DNA of 64,000 bases from contig JBAZXP010000001.1 in NCBI GenBank assembly GCA_041659805.1, positions 640,589-704,588 of the forward strand. Direction: 5' to 3'. The translations under genes were made by a program, and so were the position numbers. Of this stretch, positions 41,601-55,948 are shown piece after piece. A model generated the notes under the pieces. It saw only the letters and a list, made by a program, of their open reading frames with translations, had not been told where the DNA came from and did not search any database. Every line of letters begins with the position of its first letter. The stretch's first letter is position 1. This DNA is from Microgenomates group bacterium (GTDB lineage: Bacteria > Patescibacteriota > Microgenomatia > Daviesbacterales > UBA10151).

Positions 41601-41864
41601 ATGATTAATGCAAAAGAAGGAAAACATGTTATTGTTAAGTCTAATACTATAGTTGGAACTGTTTACTCACAGCTTGTTGGGGTTACCATCACCGATATTG
41701 ATTTGACATTAGAATTTGTTTATGTAAATCCAAGACCTAATCAAGAAGGAACTAATGAAGGCGCAGTTGTAGCTAGGGTAACACTTCCGATAGAAGCAGC
41801 AAAAGGTCTTTCTGAAACTATAAAGGATACGTTGACAAAACATTTTGCTAAGAAAGGGAACTAA
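41601..41864 (+). CDS. Hypothetical small protein, first in a three-gene mini-operon
   Basis: An 87-aa product that is unrecognised. It is separated by 1 nt from the next ORF. Confidence 0.35.
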   Translation: MINAKEGKHVIVKSNTIVGTVYSQLVGVTITDIDLTLEFVYVNPRPNQEGTNEGAVVARVTLPIEAAKGLSETIKDTLTKHFAKKGN

Positions 41865-41865
41865 A

Positions 41866-42156
41866 ATGCCACAAGGTTATATCGATCCAACTTTTTCTGA
41901 ACCTACAAAAATGCCTAAATGGGGTAAAAAAATTACTGCGGATAATGAAACGGATTGGGGCGAAGGTCATTTTGTAGTATGGGTTTCTAATTATCCTTCT
42001 TATCTTGATTTTGCAGAAGAAGAATCATTTAAGAAGCTTTTGCTTAATTCTGAATTTATCGAAGAGGTTAGAGAGACAGATAAACTTTTTGAAACAAATT
42101 CTACCAGTTTTGCTAATCTCTCTGAACTTTATAGAAAAATAAAAAAGAGCAGATGA
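41866..42156 (+). CDS. Hypothetical protein, putative antitoxin partner of the downstream RelE/ParE-like gene
   Basis: ATG at 41866. Its stop is 1 nt before the start of the next gene (aga TGA g ATG), which implies translational coupling. No recognisable antitoxin fold. Confidence 0.35.
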   Translation: MPQGYIDPTFSEPTKMPKWGKKITADNETDWGEGHFVVWVSNYPSYLDFAEEESFKKLLLNSEFIEEVRETDKLFETNSTSFANLSELYRKIKKSR

Positions 42157-42157
42157 G

Positions 42158-42460
42158 ATGTATACAATTACAGGTAAATCAGGCTCTATAGATAGAGATT
42201 TCGAAAAAATAATCAATTCCATAACCATAGTTCAAGCTGAAGAGTTAGTTAATATTTTGGAAAATTTTCCAAAAGGGAACTCAACTACACACAAAAGTAT
42301 TAAATGTGTTTATTGTGATGGAAAAAAATTATGGCAATACGATTTAACTTGGGGGGACAGGGTTATTTATAAAGTAATAGATAAAGGTAAAATTGTGCTT
42401 ATATATTATATTGGTGATCATAAAGGTGCTGAAACTTTTCGTAGAAGAGGTAGTGTTTAA
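42158..42460 (+). CDS. RelE/ParE-superfamily (YafQ/HigB-like) toxin candidate
   Basis: A 100-aa product. LWQYDLTWGDRVIYKVIDKGKIVLIYYIGDHKGAETF matches the RelE/ParE C-terminal pattern [DG]xRhIYxh-x6-hxhhxIGxH[RK]. Confidence 0.55.
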   Translation: MYTITGKSGSIDRDFEKIINSITIVQAEELVNILENFPKGNSTTHKSIKCVYCDGKKLWQYDLTWGDRVIYKVIDKGKIVLIYYIGDHKGAETFRRRGSV

Positions 42461-42478: not shown

Positions 42479-43093
42479 CTAAAATCTCCTGATTACTCCT
42501 ACACATTTACCCTGAATTTTAACGTCTGTTGCATAAATTGGCTCCATGGCTGAATTTGCAGGTTCTAACCTGATTCTGGTTGCCTCACGGTAGAATTTTT
42601 TAAGGGTAGCCAGTCCGTTTTCAAGAAGCGCTACCACTATTTCACCATTGTTGGCAGAAGTTTGTTCTTCAATGATGACGTAATCACCATCCAGAATTCC
42701 TTCTTCAATCATTGAATCACCTTTAACCTGGAGCACAAAAGAACGTTTTTTGCCTGTGATCATATTGGTTGGTACATTTACTGTGGCGTTTGGATCCGTG
42801 TAAACCATAATCGGTTGTCCTGCTGCAATAAAGCCTAATATTGGCAACTCTATTCCTTTTAAGCCTTGAGCTATTTGTGCGTCCAGCACTTCTATTCCTC
42901 TGATTGCTCCTTCAAACTTTTTGATTAATCCCTTATGAACTAAGGCCTGTAAATGTTCGTGAACTGTAGCAAGAGAAGAAACTCCAATGCTGTTGGCAAT
43001 TTCAGCTAAGGTAGGTGAATATCCATATTTTTCAATATATTGTTTAATAAAATCCAGTATTTGTCTTTGGCGTTTGTATAAAGTTATCGGCAT
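42479..43093 (-). CDS. lexA: LexA repressor (S24 peptidase)
   Basis: The start is chosen at MPITLYKRQRQILDFIKQ. The winged HTH is SPTLAEIANSIGVSSLATVHEHLQALVHKGLI, the cleavage site is AAG, the catalytic Ser is in VKGDSM and the catalytic Lys is in VALLENGLATLKK. Confidence 0.85.
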   Translation of the reverse strand: MPITLYKRQRQILDFIKQYIEKYGYSPTLAEIANSIGVSSLATVHEHLQALVHKGLIKKFEGAIRGIEVLDAQIAQGLKGIELPILGFIAAGQPIMVYTDPNATVNVPTNMITGKKRSFVLQVKGDSMIEEGILDGDYVIIEEQTSANNGEIVVALLENGLATLKKFYREATRIRLEPANSAMEPIYATDVKIQGKCVGVIRRF

Positions 43094-43179
43094 ATATTTT
43101 CGCTTTTTGTTTGTGTATTTAAGATACCAAAGACAACCCGAATATGTCAACTAGGTAAAAATATATCATTTCTAGTTAC

Positions 43180-43364: not shown

Positions 43365-44336
43365 ATGAAAAAAATACTTTTAAGCATAATGGCTATTGCC
43401 TTAGTGGCAACAGCCGGAATTTACTCTACAAGAGCATATTTTACCGATACCGAAGTCTCAACCGGAAATGAAATTCAGGCAGGGACAATCGATATCTCAG
43501 TTGATGGAGAAAATCCTTGGTCTAGAACATATACTGAAAACTGGACAGATTTTAAGCCTGGTGTAACTAAGGAAATGACCTTTGTGGTAAGAAATGAGGG
43601 CGCTAATCCAGTGGTTTTGAGAAAAATGTTGGAAAATTTCGTAGCCAGCACAGGATCTCAAACTGAACCGGAATGTGCAGCAGAACTTGGATCATGGGGT
43701 GAAGGATGTACTGGAATGACTGCAGAGGATAATGATTTATCCAAAGTCATGATTTACAGTATGACTGTTACTCCGGAAGGCGGTTCCCCAATTGTTGTTT
43801 TACCAGAAAGTTTAGGTAAGACCATGGCTAACGTTGAAGATCTCTGGTTCCCATTGGGAACAATTGAACCTGGTCAGACTTTAACAGTTACTCAAAGCTA
43901 CAAAATGAGTCCAGATGCAGGTAATCAATATCAAGGTGATACTTTAACCTTTGATATCAAGTTATTTGCAGAACAAAGACTTGGGCTTGGTGTAGATACC
44001 TCTAACGGAGTCGTTGTTGATAACAAAACAGGTGATCCTGATTGGTATTCAATGGTTGACGGCACTTTTGGAGTATTGAACAAGACAGGAGCAACAGACT
44101 ATACCTTTAATGGTTATGGTTTGGAAGCAGGGGCAACGTATCGTTTAGTTTACTCAGTTGATCCATATGGAAGCTTTACACAGCTTGCTAGTGGAGTAGC
44201 AACAGGTGGAACTATAACTTTATCCGGAAGCAATCTTCCTTTGTCTTTAACAGGCAAGGTTTGGTTACTATACGGTTCAAGTGGATGGGGTAATAATCTC
44301 AAAAACTTGTGGGAAGTTAACTTAATTAGCTATTAA
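43365..44336 (+). CDS. TasA/camelysin (peptidase M73)-family secreted protein with a SipW-cognate class signal peptide
   Basis: The N-terminus MKKILLSIMAIALVATAGIYSTRAYFTDTEVSTGNEIQAGTIDISVDG is the SipW-cognate motif (AYF[ST]D.E...N.F.AGT.D). The C-terminal motif NQYQGDTLTFDIKLFAEQ is typical of TasA/CalY. Confidence 0.75.
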   Translation: MKKILLSIMAIALVATAGIYSTRAYFTDTEVSTGNEIQAGTIDISVDGENPWSRTYTENWTDFKPGVTKEMTFVVRNEGANPVVLRKMLENFVASTGSQTEPECAAELGSWGEGCTGMTAEDNDLSKVMIYSMTVTPEGGSPIVVLPESLGKTMANVEDLWFPLGTIEPGQTLTVTQSYKMSPDAGNQYQGDTLTFDIKLFAEQRLGLGVDTSNGVVVDNKTGDPDWYSMVDGTFGVLNKTGATDYTFNGYGLEAGATYRLVYSVDPYGSFTQLASGVATGGTITLSGSNLPLSLTGKVWLLYGSSGWGNNLKNLWEVNLISY

Positions 44337-44397
44337 TTTTTTTTAGTTAATTGGTTTTTTGGGAGCCGAAGAAGTTTTCGGCTTCCTCTAAAGCCTT

Positions 44398-45027
44398 ATG
44401 AAAAAAATAGGAAATATATTTTACTGGATTTGTCTGACATTGCTAATTTTTGTGGCTATTGCAACAGCTTTTACTGTGTTGGAAGCTCCCGGTGGATACA
44501 GGTTATTTTTAGTTAGATCAGGTTCCATGGAACCTGCAGTTAAGACAGGATCAATAGTATTGGTGGCACCACAGACAAAATATTCAGCCGGAGATATTGT
44601 AACTTTTTTGAATAAAACTACAGCCAAATTAAAAGATCCCAATTCAACTACAACTCACAGAATTACTAAAGTTTCAGATGATGAGGGAAGGCCCACTTAT
44701 CAAACAAAAGGCGATGCCAACCGTTCTGCTGATATGGAATCAATTACTCAAAGACAAATTTTAGGAAAAGTTTTGTTAGTGATTCCTTTGATAGGTTATC
44801 TTATTGCTTTTACCAAGACTCAAGTGGGTTTTATCGCGTTTATTATTGTGCCTATCACCTTAATTATTTTTAGTGAACTATTGACAATAAAAAAAGAAAC
44901 TCAAAGATTGATGAGCGAAAGAAAAAGCAGAAAGTTAACAGCAATAGAACGAGTAGAAGAAAAAATCGGAGAAGAAATTATTAAAATCAAAAAAGTTACC
45001 AAAAAGAAAACCAAAAATAAAAAATGA
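44398..45027 (+). CDS. sipW: Signal peptidase I, SipW type (archaeal/ER-type S26B)
   Basis: N-terminal TM helix, then LFLVRSGSMEPAVKTGSIVLVAP with the SGSMEP catalytic-Ser motif. A C-terminal TM helix and a Lys-rich tail are present. Confidence 0.8.
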   Translation: MKKIGNIFYWICLTLLIFVAIATAFTVLEAPGGYRLFLVRSGSMEPAVKTGSIVLVAPQTKYSAGDIVTFLNKTTAKLKDPNSTTTHRITKVSDDEGRPTYQTKGDANRSADMESITQRQILGKVLLVIPLIGYLIAFTKTQVGFIAFIIVPITLIIFSELLTIKKETQRLMSERKSRKLTAIERVEEKIGEEIIKIKKVTKKKTKNKK

Positions 45028-46382
45028 TCAAAAACCTATTATTAAAAATTAGCGTAATGGTGTTTGTTTTTAGTTTTAGTTTTGTGGGAGTTACATATGG
45101 GAGAGTTAATCCTGCCGGTTTCAATGATTTTGAAGAGTCTGCCGGAAATAATTTGCAGGCTTCGACTTTGGATTTTTCCTTAAGAAACTCAGACGGAAGT
45201 TTGATAACTCCTCCTTTATTTAATGTTTCATCATTTAAACCGGAAGACAGTTCTTCAAAAAGTGCTGTTATTAAAAAAGACGGTACTTTGGATTTTAACT
45301 ACAATATTTCAGCAGCTAAAATAGGTGATGATAATTTATGTTCTGCCCTTCAAATTGAGGCTAAATTGGATGGGGTAACCAAATACAGCGGTAATTTACT
45401 AGGTTTAAACACCACACCGGCAATAACAATCACAGGAGATCAGGATGACTGGACTTTTAGAGTGACTTTAGTAAATTCAGATGCTTCTTTGCAGGATAAA
45501 ACATGTAACTTTAATATTGCGTACCGAGGTTGGCAGACAGATTCTGACGGAACATGGGGATTTAGTGATGAAGAAATATTAAGTAATAATGTGAGCACCG
45601 GGAATTGGGGAGCGATTTCTGCAGGAGACGTCATTATTAATGAGGTGATGTGGATGGGGTCAACAGAATCTACGGCTGATGAATGGCTGGAACTTCGAAA
45701 TATGACTAATCATGAAATAGATATTGGTAAATGGACACTGGATAATACAAAAGATGGTGGAGCTAGAAAATTAATGATTCCGGCGAGTAGAAGTATCCCG
45801 GCCAATGGTTATTTTCTTATTGCTAATTATCCAAAAACAAGTGCAAATTCGGTTCTTAATGTAGATGTAGATGAAGTAGCCAATTTAGAACTCCTTAATT
45901 CTGAAAATGGAAATATTATATTAAAGGATAAAAACGGAAATATTATAGATCAAGCTAAAGGTGATAGTTGGCCTGTAGGCGAAAATGGAACAGATAAAAA
46001 ATCTATGGAGAGAAACAATACACCTGGTGATGGAACACAGATAAGTAATTGGCATTTATGTATAAATTCATTCTGTAATGACACAACATATTGGGATAGT
46101 GAAGGACGAAATTATGGAACACCGAAAGCTGTAAACTTATCTGAAAATGATCCGACCTCACCGGATTACATTCCTTCGCTGGCTCCGCCAATCGAGGTTT
46201 CTTCCTCAGCCATTTTGAATATTAGCCCTACTCCGGAGTCCAGCGGATCTGCTTCAATTGTTCCTACGCCTTCAGAAACACCAACTCCAACTCCTGTTTC
46301 TGAACCAAGCCCGACGCCAACAGCTGTAATAATACCTGAATCAACACCTGCTCCCACAGAAACACAGATTCCTACACCATGA
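45024..46382 (+). CDS. Secreted protein with a SipW-cognate-type N-terminus, a lamin-tail domain (LTD) and a C-terminal Pro/Thr-rich linker
   Basis: Signal helix, then RVNPAGFNDFEESAGNNLQASTLDF, which is SipW-cognate-like. The LTD motif is GDVIINEVMWMGSTESTADEWLELRNMTNHEIDIGKWTL. The PT-rich tail is TPSETPTPTPVSEPSPTPT. Confidence 0.6.
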   Translation: MIKNLLLKISVMVFVFSFSFVGVTYGRVNPAGFNDFEESAGNNLQASTLDFSLRNSDGSLITPPLFNVSSFKPEDSSSKSAVIKKDGTLDFNYNISAAKIGDDNLCSALQIEAKLDGVTKYSGNLLGLNTTPAITITGDQDDWTFRVTLVNSDASLQDKTCNFNIAYRGWQTDSDGTWGFSDEEILSNNVSTGNWGAISAGDVIINEVMWMGSTESTADEWLELRNMTNHEIDIGKWTLDNTKDGGARKLMIPASRSIPANGYFLIANYPKTSANSVLNVDVDEVANLELLNSENGNIILKDKNGNIIDQAKGDSWPVGENGTDKKSMERNNTPGDGTQISNWHLCINSFCNDTTYWDSEGRNYGTPKAVNLSENDPTSPDYIPSLAPPIEVSSSAILNISPTPESSGSASIVPTPSETPTPTPVSEPSPTPTAVIIPESTPAPTETQIPTP

Positions 46383-47623
46383 AAAAAATTATAACTATCA
46401 TTCTTTTTATTTTGTTCTTTGGGTTATCTGCGCCGAGTGTTTTAGCAGCAGATTTAAATGTTGAATGTAACGGTTCCGGTTCATGCTCCAAAAGCGGTAT
46501 GGATCCATTATTTAGTGAATCAAGTGATGGAAGTTGGGTTCCTGGTGTTAATTTAATTAAAACAATCAACCTAAAAAATTCAAGTTCAGAAACTAAACAA
46601 ATTGCTGTTAAAGCTGCCAGAACTTCCGAGGCAGATATTTTAGAAAATGTAATGTTGGTTGACGTAGCACCCTTAGGAGGAGTAAATATTTTTTCAGGAA
46701 ATCTTGCTGATTTTTATGATCTGGATCATATTAACTTAGGTAATTTAGCGCCTGGTGAAAATAAAGATATTAATTTTTTAGTTACGATGTCTCCTTTGGC
46801 AGGGAATGAATATCAGGGTAGAAAAACAGTCTTTGATTTAACCTTAGGTTTTTGGGCTACTGAAACAACAACCTCCGGAGGCGGTGATGTTGCAGGTACA
46901 TCAACCGGCACGGGAGGGCCTTCTGTCTGTACGGATTCTAAGCCAGGTACCCCAATTAATTTAGCCGTAATTGTCGGGCCAAATTCTGATCAAGTTACAT
47001 TGTTCTGGTCTGGGGTTTCTCCCTACACATCCTTTTTGATTGCTTATTCCGATACTCCCGATGCTCCAAAATGGGGAAATCCTGATGTTGGAAATGTATC
47101 CTCGTATATAGTATCAGGCTTACCAAATGGGACATTCTTTTTTTGGGTAAGGGAGAACAATAGTTGTATGCCGGGAGATTTTGCAGGTCCGGTCTCCGTA
47201 TTTTTAAGCTCAAGTTCTGCTACAGGTTTGGCCGGAGGTTTTCAGGAAAATGTTTTAGGCATCAATTCCGATAAAGAGTCAACACCGTCCGGAAAATTAT
47301 CGGAAGGAACGCAAAGCGGTGAAGTTGCAGGAATCGAAACAGGCATTTGTCAAAGTTGTCTTTGGTGGCCAATTTTATTATTGGAATTTATTGCGTTGCT
47401 TACCTTTTATCATTTAGTTTTGAAAAAATATGGATCCAAAAATAATTATTTCATCTCCACCCTTATTCCATTATCAGTCTATCTTGTTTTTCAGTCTTTG
47501 AATAAAAGTTGTGTCAGCAGTATTTTTTTCTGTCGTTACTTTTGGTTGCTTGACGGTGGTTTATTTCTTGTCTTCATGGTACTGATTAAAGGTTGGAAAG
47601 ATCTGACTAATTCTTCAAAATAA
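46379..47623 (+). CDS. Secreted TasA-like domain fused to an FN3-like domain and a C-terminal polytopic membrane anchor
   Basis: Signal peptide. GNEYQGRKTVFDLTLGFWATE repeats the TasA/camelysin C-terminal motif. The FN3-like region is PGTPINLAVIVGPNSDQVTLFWSGVS...GTFFFWVREN. The C-terminus has 3 to 4 TM helices (WWPILLLEFIALLTFYHLV, ISTLIPLSVYLVF, LLDGGLFLVFMVLI). Confidence 0.5.
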   Translation: MKKIITIILFILFFGLSAPSVLAADLNVECNGSGSCSKSGMDPLFSESSDGSWVPGVNLIKTINLKNSSSETKQIAVKAARTSEADILENVMLVDVAPLGGVNIFSGNLADFYDLDHINLGNLAPGENKDINFLVTMSPLAGNEYQGRKTVFDLTLGFWATETTTSGGGDVAGTSTGTGGPSVCTDSKPGTPINLAVIVGPNSDQVTLFWSGVSPYTSFLIAYSDTPDAPKWGNPDVGNVSSYIVSGLPNGTFFFWVRENNSCMPGDFAGPVSVFLSSSSATGLAGGFQENVLGINSDKESTPSGKLSEGTQSGEVAGIETGICQSCLWWPILLLEFIALLTFYHLVLKKYGSKNNYFISTLIPLSVYLVFQSLNKSCVSSIFFCRYFWLLDGGLFLVFMVLIKGWKDLTNSSK

Positions 47624-47668: not shown

Positions 47669-48268
47669 ATGAAGCTGATTGTCCTAGGTTTAGTAACAAT
47701 TTTTATTGGCGCTTTTATTGCCTTTTTTTACCCTGTTATTAAGGCAGAAATAAATTTATATTTTTTAAACCATAATGGCTTGAGGTTTCAGGTAGATGCA
47801 ATCCAAACAGAGAAAAGGCAGCTTATTCCTAATGATGATCAATTTGGGATAGTGATTAATAAGATTGCAGCTAACGGTAAAGTGCAGGAATTTGATGTTG
47901 TAAATAACAATCTCTCTTTAGAGTATTTTTTACAGCGTGGGTTGGTTCACCTGTCTGATTCTGCCAGGCCGGGTAGTATTGGAAATGTGGTAATAATCAC
48001 TCAAACGAGTGGTGGTTGGTATTGGTATACAAGAACAAATCCGGAGTTTTATTTAATTTATAAACTCATGCCGGGTGATGTTATTGAGGTTTTTTATAAA
48101 GGTGAAAGATTTGATTATATAGTTACAGAAAATAGTTGGGTTAGCGAGAAAAGGCTTGAAAATTACACTGCTGCATCTGATCAAAAAATATTAACTATTT
48201 TATCCGGTTGGCCTCCTGGTACAATGATGTTCCGCCTTGTTGTTCAGGCTAAAATGATAGAGCAGTAG
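47669..48268 (+). CDS. Sortase-fold protein (N-terminal TM plus sortase-like domain) with substituted catalytic residues
   Basis: By-eye alignment to SrtA places NVVIITQTSGG over NVSIAGHTF (the His position), GDVIEVFYKGERFDYIVTE over the beta6/7 region, and KILTILSGWPPGTMMFRLVVQA over QLTLITCDD...RKIFVA. The TLxTC Cys position is occupied by S/G and the His by Q. The conserved Arg is present. Confidence 0.5.
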   Translation: MKLIVLGLVTIFIGAFIAFFYPVIKAEINLYFLNHNGLRFQVDAIQTEKRQLIPNDDQFGIVINKIAANGKVQEFDVVNNNLSLEYFLQRGLVHLSDSARPGSIGNVVIITQTSGGWYWYTRTNPEFYLIYKLMPGDVIEVFYKGERFDYIVTENSWVSEKRLENYTAASDQKILTILSGWPPGTMMFRLVVQAKMIEQ

Positions 48269-48383
48269 TGATTTCGGGTCTTCTTCGTGTTAAAATAAGA
48301 ACCTGCTTCACTCGCTGAATTTATAATTTTCAGCTCGTTTGCAGAACCTTGCCTTTTCAGTTAGGCTGAAAAGGTGGTCTATT

Positions 48384-50357
48384 ATGGCAAATTTAAAGAT
48401 CATATCTGATTTTAAACCGACAGGAGACCAGCCACAAGCTATCGAAAAACTTGTAGTTGGTCTTAAGGCGGGAAAACAACATCAGGTTTTACTCGGCGTG
48501 ACAGGCAGTGGTAAAACCTTTAGTATGGCTAATGTTATTCAGAAGATAAACAAGCCAACCTTGATTATTTCTCACAATAAAACTTTGGCAGGACAATTAG
48601 CCCAGGAATTCAGGTCTTTGTTTCCTGAAAATGCTGTTGAATATTTTGTTTCTTATTATGATTATTATCAGCCTGAAGCATATGTTCCTCAATCAGATAC
48701 TTATATAGAAAAAGAGGCAATGGTTAATGATGAAATTGAAAAATTAAGGCTTTCTACCACAGCGTCACTTATGACCCGAAAAGATGTAATAGTAGTTGCT
48801 TCTGTTTCTGCAATTTACAACTTAGGTTCACCTGTTGAATACGGTTCTGCAGTTTTAGAAATTAAGGCAGGTATGAAAGCAACAATGCATTCCATATTAA
48901 AGTTTCTGACCTCAATTTATTATGAGAGAAATGATATAGATTTTCATAGAGGAACTTTCAGGTTAAGAGGAGACACGTTAGATATTTTTCCTGCCTATAA
49001 AGATACTGCTTTAAGAATTGAATTTTTAGGAGATGATATTGAGAAAATTTACTCTATGGATCCTGTTTCTGGGGAAACTATTCCTGTTTCTGAAGCTCAG
49101 GTAATTTATCCTTCAAAACATTATGTAACACCAATGCAAAGATTGATTCCTGCTGTAAAACAAATAGAAGAAGATTTAGAAATTAGATTAAAGCAGCTTA
49201 GGGATCAAAATAAGTTAGTAGAAGCACAAAGACTTGAACAGAGGACATCTTATGATTTGGAAATTATTAAACAATATGGATATTGTAACGGAATAGAAAA
49301 TTATTCCAGATATTTTGACGGGAGAGAACCTGGACAACCTCCATACAGCTTATTGGATTATTTTCCTGATGATTATTTATTACTTATTGATGAATCCCAC
49401 ATGTCTTTACCCCAAGTCAGGGGAATGTATAACGGAGACAGAGCCCGCAAAGAAACCTTAATCGATTTTGGTTTTAGGCTTCCTTCAGCGCTTGATAACA
49501 GACCATTAAAATTTGATGAATTTGTAAGAAAAATTAACCAGGTTGTATATGTTTCAGCTACCCCAAACGAATATGAATTATCTCTTGCAGGTAAGGACGG
49601 TGTGGCAGAACAATTAGTCAGACCAACAGGAATTTTGGATCCTATTATTGATGTCAGGCCCACAAAAAATCAGATTCAGGATTTATTAAGCGAAATTGAA
49701 ATAAGAGTTAAGAAAGGCGAGAGAACTTTAGTTACTACAATGACTAAGAGAATGGCAGAAGATTTATCAGAATATTTGCATGATAAAGGAATAAAAGTTA
49801 ATTATTTGCACTCAGATATTAAGACTATGGAAAGAGCAGATATTTTACAATCCCTAAGGATGGGAGAATATGATGTTATTGTCGGAATTAATTTACTCAG
49901 AGAAGGATTGGATTTACCAGAAGTTTCACTTGTTGCAATACTTGATGCAGACAAAGAGGGCTTTTTGAGATCAAGGTCTGCCTTGATTCAGAGCATGGGA
50001 AGGGCTGCAAGGCATATAGAAGGCAGGGTAATTATGTATGCAGATAAAGAGACTGGTTCCATGAAAGAGGCTATTGATGAGGTTTCAAGGCGTAGGCAAT
50101 ATCAGGAAAAATTTAATAAAAAGCACAATATTACTCCAAAACCAATTATTAAGGCCTTAAGAGATAGATTAATCGATAAAGTTGAAGAATTGGAAAGTGA
50201 GTTAGGTAAAAAGGATTTTTCTATTGCTGATATTCCAGAAGCAGAAAGACAAAGAATGATTAAAAATTTGGAAGCTCAAATGAAACAGGCTGCAGAGATT
50301 CAGGATTTTGAAGAAGCAGCTAAAATAAGAGATCAGATTAAAGAACTAAGTATTTAA
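48384..50357 (+). CDS. uvrB: Excinuclease ABC subunit B
   Basis: ATG at 48384, preceded by the [34 protein letters not shown], Walker [10 protein letters not shown], helicase motifs, and a C-terminal UVR domain ([16 protein letters not shown]). Confidence 0.9.
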
Positions 50358-54091: not shown

Positions 54092-54112
54092 AATATTTGT
54101 TACAATTATAGT

Positions 54113-55948
54113 ATGCTCCGCAAATTTATTCTGATCTTTTTATTATTCCTAATTTTTGTCGTACTTCCTAAAAATGTGAGCGCTGCCAGTGAATTTGAGA
54201 CTGATTATAAAGTTAGCTATGATGTGACTGAAGACGGTGTAACTCAGGTTGCAGAAAAAATAACTCTGACAAATTTAACCGAGACTTACTATGCTTCTAC
54301 TTTTGTTCTGACTATTGGTTCGACATCTCTTGGTGACGTGTCTGCTATAGATGGTGGCGGAGTAATGGAGGCAAAATCCGAAGTTAAAGATAATAAAACA
54401 GTAGTCACATTAAAATTTAACGAACAGATTACGGGTATAGATAAGACGCAAACCTTCACATTAAAATATAAATCCAATGATTTTGCTTTAAAAATCGGTA
54501 AAAACTGGGAAGTAAATTTGCCACGAATTCATGAAGGAGAAGATATAAAAACTTTTAATGTTGCGCTTTCTGTTCCCCTGAGTTTTGGAGAACCCACTTC
54601 AATTACTCCGAAACCAAAATCCGAGTCTGATGGCGCAGGAAAATTGGTTTTAAATTTTACTAAAGATCAGTTGGCAAATAGCGGTGTTTCAGTCAACTTC
54701 GGCAGTAATCAGGTTTTTGATTTTAACCTTAAATATAATCTAAATAATAATTCTTTTTTCCCTACGGTTGTATCAATCAGTTTGCCAATGAATACAAATT
54801 ATCAGGATGTTTTAATAAATTCCATTAACCCAAAACCGTTAAATGTGACAACTGATTTAGATGGAAATTACTTGGCTTGGTATCAAATTCAAAAGCGTTC
54901 TTCAGAGCAAGTTACAGTTTCAGGTTCTGTTAAGTTATATATAAATCCCAAAACTAACACAACAAAATTAACTAAGGCTCAAGTTTCAGGTTTAACAAAG
55001 TCTGATAAGTATTGGGAAAGAGATAACCCCAGTATTAAAGCAGTGAACGCTGAAATATTTAAAAACGGGAAGCCAAAAACCACCGAAGAACAAGTTCATC
55101 AAATTTATCAGTATTTGGTAAATACTTTAAAATATAATTCTGCTATATCTGAACAAACAAGGCTCGGTGCACTAACGTCCCTTTCAAATTTAGATAGATC
55201 GAAAGCATTAGAGTTTACAGATCTTTTTATCGCACTTGTTAGGGCAGACGGTATCCCGGCAAGAGGGCTTGATGGTATAGCATACAGTCAGAATAAAACT
55301 TTAAGGCCACTTTCTCTAATTCCTGATGTGACTCATTCATGGACCGAGTATTTCGATGAACATTCTGGTTGGGTTATGGTAGATCCAACATGGGAACAAA
55401 CATCGGGTGGTGTAGATTATTTTAACAAACTTGATTTAAACCATTTCGTAATTAATATTAGAGGAGAGTCCTCAACCAGTCCAACTGCAGCTACTGTCGC
55501 CGAGATGACAGTTTCTCCAAATGAATTTGCTCCGAATTCTTCACCTCAAATAGATTTGGATGTAAAACCTGAACTTTGGGTAGGGTTGCCGGGAATTTTT
55601 AAAGTAATAATTCAAAATAATGGGAGTATCACAATTCCATCAAACAGCATAAATATCAGCGCAGGTAGAATTAATTTATTAGACTCAAAAGAGATTACTG
55701 TAGATCAAATCCCTCCTTTTGGTTCCACAACCTTTGATGTGAATTTCAGAACCCCGTTTTTAAATGAATATACTACTGATGAGATAGTTGTAAATTATAT
55801 GGGCAAACAATATACGAAGAAGGTTGCGCTCACCCCGTTTTTCTTACTAAGCTTGCTTCCTTACTTGTTCAGATTTGCTGTATTTTTGGTTGTATTTATG
55901 TATTTTTTAGTTTTAGGTGTACATGCCCACAAAAGAAGAAAAAGGTAG
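54113..55948 (+). CDS. Secreted transglutaminase-like superfamily protein with a C-terminal membrane anchor. The canonical Cys appears absent.
   Basis: Signal peptide. The TGase-like core is FTDLFIALVRADGIPARGLDGIAY...DVTHSWTEYFDEHSGWVMVDPTW, with the His and Asp present but T/D where the Cys motif would be. The C-terminus has a hydrophobic helix plus HKRRKR. Confidence 0.5.
   Translation: MLRKFILIFLLFLIFVVLPKNVSAASEFETDYKVSYDVTEDGVTQVAEKITLTNLTETYYASTFVLTIGSTSLGDVSAIDGGGVMEAKSEVKDNKTVVTLKFNEQITGIDKTQTFTLKYKSNDFALKIGKNWEVNLPRIHEGEDIKTFNVALSVPLSFGEPTSITPKPKSESDGAGKLVLNFTKDQLANSGVSVNFGSNQVFDFNLKYNLNNNSFFPTVVSISLPMNTNYQDVLINSINPKPLNVTTDLDGNYLAWYQIQKRSSEQVTVSGSVKLYINPKTNTTKLTKAQVSGLTKSDKYWERDNPSIKAVNAEIFKNGKPKTTEEQVHQIYQYLVNTLKYNSAISEQTRLGALTSLSNLDRSKALEFTDLFIALVRADGIPARGLDGIAYSQNKTLRPLSLIPDVTHSWTEYFDEHSGWVMVDPTWEQTSGGVDYFNKLDLNHFVINIRGESSTSPTAATVAEMTVSPNEFAPNSSPQIDLDVKPELWVGLPGIFKVIIQNNGSITIPSNSINISAGRINLLDSKEITVDQIPPFGSTTFDVNFRTPFLNEYTTDEIVVNYMGKQYTKKVALTPFFLLSLLPYLFRFAVFLVVFMYFLVLGVHAHKRRKR

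Follow-up and report, generated by a model that had tools for sequence, protein, structure and literature searches.

The 64,000-nucleotide stretch of DNA from an uncultivated Microgenomates group bacterium analysed here (the window) encodes, at positions 47669-48268 of the forward strand, a sortase-fold protein that has neither the catalytic cysteine (Cys) nor the catalytic histidine (His) of sortases. Sortases cut the tails of surface proteins and attach them to the cell wall, and they are treated as obligate Cys transpeptidases. The open reading frame (ORF) runs from ATG to TAG and specifies a cysteine-free sortase homolog of 199 amino acids (aa), which we refer to as the pseudo-sortase. By fold and sequence, this protein belongs to the sortase superfamily; it cannot form a thioacyl intermediate, is not a Cys transpeptidase, and represents a pseudoenzyme form of sortase. 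We suggest, as a reading with about an even chance of being correct, that it is a non-catalytic receptor or adaptor that would bind the tails of surface proteins.

A sortase fold without the catalytic Cys and His

That the protein has a sortase fold had been claimed in an earlier reading of the DNA made without database searches (the sequence-only reading), and profile, model and structure comparisons bear this out. The Pfam profile PF04203 matches the protein at 39 bits (E 7.8e-10; gathering cut-off 26.6), and the profile of its family matches 39 solved sortases at E <1e-5, among them SrtD (4d70) at E 4.5e-15. An AlphaFold2 model based on an alignment of 41 sequences (mean predicted local distance difference test score 86.5; predicted template modelling score 0.82) has a pair of helices at its N-terminus (residues 2-39) and then a beta-barrel. 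When this model was compared with PDB using Foldseek, the leading matches were exclusively sortases (2xwg, 4d70, 6ixz and others; E ~1e-10) with template modelling scores, normalised by target length, of up to 0.71, and the barrel is the eight-stranded barrel of sortases. None of the NCBIfam sortase classes (A-F) is reached by the protein, for which class C is best at 25.2 bits (cut-off 160), nor by its active relatives P0013 and P0019, which likewise score under every class cut-off (P and L numbers denote proteins and loci, respectively, in our comparisons). The protein matches exactly the public entry P0001, which lies on a contig of 1.13 Mb and is annotated 'MAG: sortase [Microgenomates group bacterium]', where MAG stands for metagenome-assembled genome; this match places the window in a Patescibacteria genome.

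Catalytic columns were assigned from the joint alignment of 41 sequences, an hmmalign alignment of 190 family members, and profile-to-PDB alignments. In distant relatives, the catalytic triad lies in the motifs 'GNvfLFAHS' (His), 'LTLMTCWPPGT' (Cys) and 'KRLvV' (Arg). These columns align with 'AGHR', 'TIVTC' (within 'TIVTCTNRG') and 'DRYIV' in 4d70, and with 'SAHTG', 'TLLTCYPYG' and 'ERLLV' in 6ixz. The corresponding features of the pseudo-sortase, the last three placed by these alignments, are:

47672..47785, + strand: N-terminal membrane anchor (hydrophobic residues 2-21) and juxtamembrane helix with 'FYPVIKAE' (residues 2-39 in all; helices 2-19 and 21-39 in the AlphaFold2 model)
47981..48010, + strand: 'GNVVIITQTS' strand, with Gln112 (CAA, 48002-48004) in the catalytic His column
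48191..48223, + strand: 'LTILSGWPPGT', with Gly180 (GGT, 48206-48208) in the nucleophile Cys column and the WPPGT loop kept
48230..48244, + strand: 'FRLVV' strand, with Arg189 (CGC, 48233-48235) equivalent to the catalytic Arg

Thus, the nucleophile Cys and the catalytic His at the end of beta-4 are both missing, while the Arg in beta-8 is present. The protein contains no Cys and only two His residues, one in a variable linker and the other, H94, equally conserved in active relatives. The sequence-only reading had aligned the protein to SrtA by eye and concluded that His and Cys are replaced and that the Arg-containing strand is retained. All three conclusions hold, although its register of 'LSGWP' against 'LITCD' was off by one. 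It had also considered that a proper alignment might shift a Cys and a His back into catalytic positions; because there is no Cys anywhere in the protein, no such shift can restore catalysis, and H94 is common to the active relatives. Because the defining catalytic features are lacking, the protein should not be classified among the sortase enzymes, and in that sense the public annotation 'sortase' is misleading. For the N-terminal region, in which P22 and E27 are conserved in active and Cys-less members alike, we infer a type II topology.

Conservation and origin of the Cys-free clade

A word-indexed homolog search identified nine relatives at 54-62% identity, which together with the window protein form a close clade of 10, and a profile search added 31 more distant relatives at 23-41% identity. 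Within the clade, the Cys column is occupied by Gly in all 10 members and the His column by Gln in nine and Asn in one. Nine members have no Cys, and the tenth has a single one confined to the membrane anchor. The Arg189 equivalent is relaxed, with Gln in P0007 and Asn in P0009. In the alignment of homologs, which the sequence-only reading had proposed as a check on the Cys, the residue is present in active family members and absent from that column throughout the close clade.

The clade is conserved in a manner that argues against decay. All four Gly codons (GGT, GGC, GGA, GGG) are used at position 180, and position 112 is encoded by CAA and CAG, with AAT (Asn) in one member. A sequencing error or a recent mutation at the Cys codon is ruled out by this clade-wide Gly in four different codons. 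The reading frame is intact in at least 10 independent assemblies, 55 positions are invariant across the clade, and the pairwise Nei-Gojobori ratio of nonsynonymous to synonymous substitution rates (dN/dS) is approximately 0.12-0.23. The four Gly codons, the low dN/dS and the conservation indicate that the protein is maintained by purifying selection. These data bear directly on the alternative that this is a sortase gene in the course of being lost, a relic without function. The loss of all catalytic chemistry and the variable genomic context would fit such a relic, but the intact frame, the invariant positions, the dN/dS values and the synonymous codon turnover at the Gly and Gln positions speak against it, as does the fact that CPR (Candidate Phyla Radiation) genomes are small and seldom keep dead genes. 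We consider a relic highly improbable.

The changes in the clade include the catalytic motifs. Of 40 positions conserved to at least 80% in 154 active members, 26 are kept in the clade and 14 are changed or relaxed; the latter comprise positions in AHA (93, 95), FAHS (110, 112, 113) and L-x-T-C (177, 179, 180), the substitution P64N, and five positions elsewhere. From active members to the clade, 'AHA' has become 'VHL', 'FAHS' has become 'I.QT', and 'L-x-T-C' has become 'I-x-S-G'; the scaffold and the WPPGT loop following the Cys position are retained. We conclude that the window protein is derived from a CPR-specific family of active sortases, characterised by FAHS, TCWPPGT and KRL, by replacement of Cys by Gly and of His by Gln. 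In the more distant homologs P0011 and P0012, the Cys is lost and the His still present, which suggests that loss of the nucleophile Cys probably preceded that of the His.

Ser179 raises the alternative that the protein is an active enzyme with another nucleophile, which would carry out hydrolysis or transpeptidation via an oxy-ester. Ser179 is invariant in the clade. The same holds for N64, D116, W117, Y118, T121 and R122, six positions at which active relatives are more variable or have another residue. However, Ser179 does not occupy the nucleophile position but stands where active members have the Thr that precedes the Cys (T-C; 97% conserved). Moreover, Gln or Asn stands in for the catalytic His, H94 cannot count as a newly gained base since it is equally conserved in active enzymes, and the Arg189 equivalent is replaced in two clade members. 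The Ser-based variant entertained in the sequence-only reading is thereby reduced to a conservative counterpart of Thr in a protein whose general-base His is gone and whose Arg is not invariant, and we regard it as very unlikely.

The clade is narrow. Searched exhaustively with a profile, 1.84 billion cluster representatives yielded 2834 matches, in which the close clade is one representative at 345 bits, P0011 follows at 210 bits, and the remainder score at most 145 bits; it is this steep drop in score beyond the clade and P0011 that indicates narrowness. When the clade profile was run against GTDB species genomes, it matched only two loci, both already in our locus set. Among the 190 aligned family sequences, 154 have His, Cys and Arg, and ~28 full-length sequences lack the Cys, mostly with Gly in its place, a proportion that is inflated because the query profile is itself Cys-less. 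In a neighbour-joining tree, to be taken as a rough guide only, the Cys-less sequences fall into ~6 groups, the largest of which has 19 members and includes the window clade. In the genome carrying locus L008 (= L003; CAZDEH010000010.1), which is labelled 'uncultured Gammaproteobacteria bacterium', the pseudo-sortase and uvrB closely match Microgenomates/Daviesbacteria relatives, and to judge from these sequences the label looks wrong.

Gene neighbourhood and a possible role in binding surface-protein tails

The gene context of the active relatives was compared across 80 metagenome loci. A recurring operon order is a large surface protein, a protein of ~320 aa, and the sortase. The large protein ends in '(E/Q)VLGASTELPATG(A/G)xxxW', a transmembrane (TM) helix and basic residues, and the ~320-aa protein ends in 'G(E/Q)xLG(E/D)xTPS', a spacer, a TM helix and basic residues. 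Among L014-L093, examples of such operons are L020 456-6585, L031 1200-6561, L036 488-6567 and L075 1891-4521, in which the tail of the first protein reads EVLGASTELPATGxxxW-TM-basic. With the signal taken as xLG followed by a spacer, a run of hydrophobic residues and a basic end, it is found in 39 of the 68 immediate upstream neighbours versus 28 of 548 other ORFs, and, as judged from the listed tails, ~18 of these 28 are LPATG proteins of the same operons. A third variant of the signal, without LPxTG, lies directly upstream of three active members:

L012, upstream tail: 'EGEVVGIFGGKNAKYWW-TM-RRK'
L016, upstream tail: 'EEVKGAFGESTKSFWSRWW-TM-RRYKR'
L015, upstream tail: 'QVAGEGLFSGNGKYW-TM'

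We found no account in the searchable literature that presents the xVLG motif common to these tails as a sorting signal, nor any description of CPR sortase substrates.

The gene directly upstream of the pseudo-sortase gene encodes a protein with a tail of this third type:

46379..47623, + strand: 414-aa surface protein, with 45 nt between its gene and that of the pseudo-sortase
47249..47440, + strand: sorting-signal-like region with NVLGINS (residues 291-297), GEVAGIETG (314-322), CQSC (324-327), TM helix LWWPILLLEFIALLTFYHLVL (328-348) and KKYGSK
47450..47587, + strand: two further TM helices, a loop with Cys378 and Cys385, and 'CRYFWLLD'; this module is conserved in L096 and present as a remnant by P0011 in L011

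Besides a Sec signal peptide, the 414-aa protein comprises a TasA-like domain (residues ~25-158), an fn3 domain (~185-276) and a linker in which [ED]V[LA]G motifs occur. Its N-terminal domain matches the LPATG protein of the active-sortase operon L075 (30% identity, E 9e-11) and the TasA-like protein encoded at 43365 in the window (E 8e-8), and its fn3 part shares 36% identity with that of L011 (E 3e-15). Its tail, 'ENVLGINS..GEVAGIETGICQSC-LWWPILLLEFIALLTFYHLVL-KKYGSK', has the EVxG motif, the WW-containing TM helix and the basic residues of the third signal type, with two more TM helices thereafter. At the window locus, an N-terminally anchored protein is thus preceded by one whose C-terminus combines a motif, a TM helix and a basic tail, as for active members. 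The sequence-only reading had stated that none of the neighbours carries an LPxTG-like signal; this is literally true for canonical LPxTG, of which there is none in the 64-kb window, but the family-type signal in the upstream gene was missed. Its statement that a canonical substrate is not apparent consequently holds for canonical LPxTG only, given that the 414-aa protein carries the signal type seen upstream of active L012, L016 and L015. We also considered that enzyme and substrate had degenerated together, with LPATG turning into GIETG, and dropped this idea, as EVxG/WW-TM signals without LPxTG also occur upstream of the active members L012 and L016.

The motif [ED/N]V[LA]G(x)(S/E)T occurs three times in the 414-aa protein, as DVAGTSTG (46886-46909), NVLGINS (47249-47269) and EVAGIETG (47318-47344). 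The first two each come after a folded domain, while the third precedes the membrane module; from this placement, V[LA]G-type motifs may mark linkers between domains rather than a single cleavage site.

Five of the loci with other Cys-less homologs have the following neighbours, the L009 tail being of the third signal type; L096 is the fifth and is described below the list:

L009 (P0005): 1401-aa cadherin-like adhesin directly upstream, tail 'GEVKGAQTVASNYWW-TM-RRK'
L001 and L005: ~190-aa LAxTG protein, tail 'VLGLA(Y/S)TGN-TM-KK', and a ~175-aa second-type catalytic sortase directly upstream
L010: fusion of fn3 and sortase at 885-2030, within 2 kb of the clade gene
L011: fusion of fn3 and sortase at 304-1653, directly upstream of P0011

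The divergent Cys-less P0012 of L096 shares only 32% identity with the window protein, yet it is preceded by a protein of the 414-aa type that is 52% identical to the window protein's neighbour over 310 aa (E 5e-103), with the likeness spanning fn3, linker, 'CQSC' and the three-helix module. In L011, a 47-aa uncalled remnant of the membrane module lies just after P0011 (E 6e-8).

Based on these data, we suggest a model in which the sortase fold was kept while nucleophile and general base were replaced, so that the C-terminal sorting region of surface proteins would be bound and not cleaved. In this model, the pseudo-sortase would be a membrane-anchored receptor for docking or retention, or else an adaptor. 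The client in the window would be the upstream 414-aa TasA-like/fn3 protein with its EVxG/WW-TM/KK signal, and in genomes with an adjoining second-type catalytic sortase, the pseudo-sortase could serve as a substrate-presenting partner. The model is supported by the sortase-typical gene linkage, i.e. a signal-bearing protein upstream in the window and in L009 and the ortholog of the 414-aa protein at P0012. Also in its favour are the fold, the long-term maintenance, the catalytic sortase and LAxTG protein upstream in L001 and L005, the fn3-sortase fusions near the genes of L010 and L011, and the signal-bearing neighbours of active relatives. Several observations count against it. Four of the nine clade loci (L003, L094, L095, L097) have no adjoining signal-bearing protein or sortase, so that not every locus has a fixed partner. 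The neighbours that vary least are the downstream genes uvrB and uvrA (window, L001, L003, L005), a pattern that points to vertical synteny rather than function. In addition, there is no active sortase within the 64-kb window, the Arg is lost in P0007 and P0009, and dS is saturated, making the dN/dS values approximate only.

A different function would follow if the pseudo-sortase were an obligate accessory or regulatory subunit of the separate ~175-aa sortase with the motifs 'YGHNW..TLYTC(T/S)G..KR', which is found free-standing or fused to fn3. Pseudoenzyme and enzyme would then be paired, the former tuning localisation or specificity instead of being a receptor by itself. Such a catalytic sortase is encoded immediately upstream in L001 and L005, and fn3 fusions of the same sortase type lie near the L010 and L011 genes. 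The fusions have a signal peptide and no TM segment, and for such proteins a membrane-anchored pseudo-sortase partner would make sense. By contrast, no sortase of this type is present in the 64-kb window, in 20 kb of L003, or in L009, L094 and L095, and none of the best 120 of 965 matches to it comes from the 1.13-Mb contig of the window, which is a weak negative. A search of the window with the family hidden Markov model and with the second-type sortase revealed no other sortase. On balance, we consider a subunit role unlikely. The fn3-sortase fusions of L010 and L011 themselves contain His, Cys and Arg and, with a signal peptide and no TM anchor, are secreted proteins; the linker of the L011 fusion carries three xVLG repeats.

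The remaining genes of the cluster in the window raise one more alternative:

43365..44336, + strand: TasA/camelysin-like secreted protein with a SipW-type signal peptide (PF12389 35.9 bits; TIGR04088 24.7 versus cut-off 19)
44398..45027, + strand: SipW-like (archaeal-type) signal peptidase I (TIGR02228 100 bits versus 51.85; NF046067 111 bits)
45024..46382, + strand: secreted protein with a lamin-tail domain and a camelysin-like/SipW-type N-terminus (PF00932 55.8 bits; the ORF overlaps both neighbours)
48349..48377, + strand: terminator-like hairpin of 13 pairs, between the stop codon of the pseudo-sortase gene and the probable uvrB ATG at 48384

The genes at 43365-46382 form a compact, overlapping cluster in a CPR genome that resembles a Bacillus-style biofilm-fibre operon. 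The pseudo-sortase could accordingly be a chaperone or assembly factor specific for SipW-dependent TasA-like fibre proteins. Its gene has the same orientation as those for the TasA-like, SipW, lamin-tail and 414-aa proteins and apparently belongs to the same operon, with no terminator-like site before it, and the 414-aa neighbour holds a TasA-like domain. However, the combination of a SipW-type peptidase with substrates that have a SipW-type signal peptide was found in the window only: neither SipW nor proteins with SipW-type signal peptides were detected in L001, L003, L005, L009, L010, L094, L095, L097, L011 or L096, where several of the contigs are only 1.7-6 kb. Furthermore, the upstream cargo differs between loci, being a cadherin-like adhesin, an ice-binding-like protein or a small LAxTG protein. 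We consider a fibre-specific chaperone improbable. The proposal of the sequence-only reading, an inactive adaptor or chaperone for adjacent TasA-like substrates, is thus favoured as regards an inactive adaptor and disfavoured as regards a link to TasA/SipW as such. Its TasA-like neighbour has gained substance, in that the 414-aa gene does hold a TasA-like domain and has a 52% identical copy upstream of another Cys-less homolog.

The C-terminal membrane module of the 414-aa protein, 'G(I/F)CQSC(L/I)W' followed by three TM helices, occurs in the window (47348-47587), in L096 (~800-1134) and in L011 (2560-2700). It has four extracytoplasmic Cys residues (a CxxC and a pair), adjoins three different Cys-less homologs, and has no Pfam or NCBIfam match. 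As read from its sequence, the arrangement of Cys recalls membrane thiol oxidoreductases. Going well beyond the receptor or adaptor model, we speculate, as a long shot, that Cys-less sortase folds, of which ~28 full-length sequences in several independent groups occur among 188 family representatives, may be recurrent CPR sorting-signal receptors, and that the window/L096 type may be a two-gene machine with an EVxG-bearing surface protein, in which the client module, and not the sortase-like protein, would supply thiol chemistry or membrane anchoring.

Further features of the loci are recorded here. The longest uvrB ORF begins with TTG at 48339, and the L003 homologs and the hairpin at 48349-48377 suggest that the true start is the ATG at 48384 (window 48339-48384). 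Two clade members, in L003 (9951-10850) and L094 (2393-3292), have a gene for a class A beta-lactamase-like protein (PF13354) inserted between the pseudo-sortase gene and uvrB. A transglutaminase-core protein of ~615 aa with a C-terminal TM helix and a basic tail (HKRRKR) is encoded at syntenic sites in the window (54092-55945), L001 (14006-15850) and L003 (17574-19448); its gene adjoins uvr genes, lying between uvrA and uvrC in L001 and just before uvrC in L003. Divergent from the TasA-like gene in the window is an ORF for a putative LexA-like repressor (42479-43150, - strand), in the translation of which helix-turn-helix and S24 peptidase regions were recognised, and two small ORFs just before it (41845-42460) look like a toxin-antitoxin pair.

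Significance and comparison with known systems

A conserved and selected Cys-free clade shows that the sortase fold has been re-used beyond catalysis. In searchable literature, we found no pseudo-sortase and no inactive, non-catalytic or Cys-less sortase described, and nothing relevant for CPR together with LPXTG. The cell-surface biology of Microgenomates is essentially unexplored, and the comparisons newly expose the layout of CPR sortase operons and the C-terminal xVLG/EVxG signal. Together with this signal, the clade, the CQSC membrane module and the fn3-sortase fusions provide entry points into CPR surface biology. Should the pseudo-sortase be a receptor for sorting signals, it would provide a naturally occurring protein that binds the tails of surface proteins without cleaving them, would help to explain how CPR surfaces are built and could serve as a scaffold for protein engineering.

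A sortase family occurs almost throughout Microgenomates (PMC6744442). For the CPR 'Pam' pilus, a 2026 preprint describes a chaperone-containing donor-strand system and mentions sortases as background only (10.64898/2026.03.03.709456). We rejected this pilus as an explanation for the pseudo-sortase, as it is a separate system without a role for sortases.

Among the closest known systems is the active CPR TCWPPGT family (P0013-P0041, L012-L093), the members of which are annotated just as 'sortase' and are 30-40% identical to the window protein over the full length. Both share the 'FYPV..AE' anchor helix, the GVAH, GN, FYLL and WPPGT motifs, and a site downstream of genes for surface proteins with xVLG/EVxG, TM and basic tails. 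They differ in that the active family has His, Cys and Arg (154 of the 190 aligned sequences), whereas the window clade has Gln or Asn, Gly and a relaxed Arg. Among solved structures, the class C and D sortases, i.e. Actinomyces oris SrtC-1 (2xwg), Clostridium perfringens SrtD (4d70) and SrtC (6ixz), have the same beta-barrel and are the best sequence matches. The class C motif 'TLLTCYPYG' is similar to that of the family; the window protein is ~18-24% identical to class C and D enzymes, without their catalytic Cys or His.

The Bacillus subtilis tapA-sipW-tasA operon resembles the window in that the latter encodes a SipW-type signal peptidase together with TasA/camelysin-like proteins that have SipW-type signal peptides. 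To our knowledge, the B. subtilis operon has no sortase-like component. The two also differ in that the linkage of a sortase-like gene to SipW and TasA is confined to the window and is not seen at the other clade loci.

Pseudoenzymes are common in large enzyme families. The iRhom pseudoproteases, which keep the fold and the client binding of their protease family, offer a parallel from an unrelated fold and from unrelated organisms. In both cases, the catalytic residues are lost while fold, membrane anchoring and purifying selection are kept, and a function in client binding is proposed. In iRhoms, client binding has been demonstrated, whereas for the pseudo-sortase it is a proposal.

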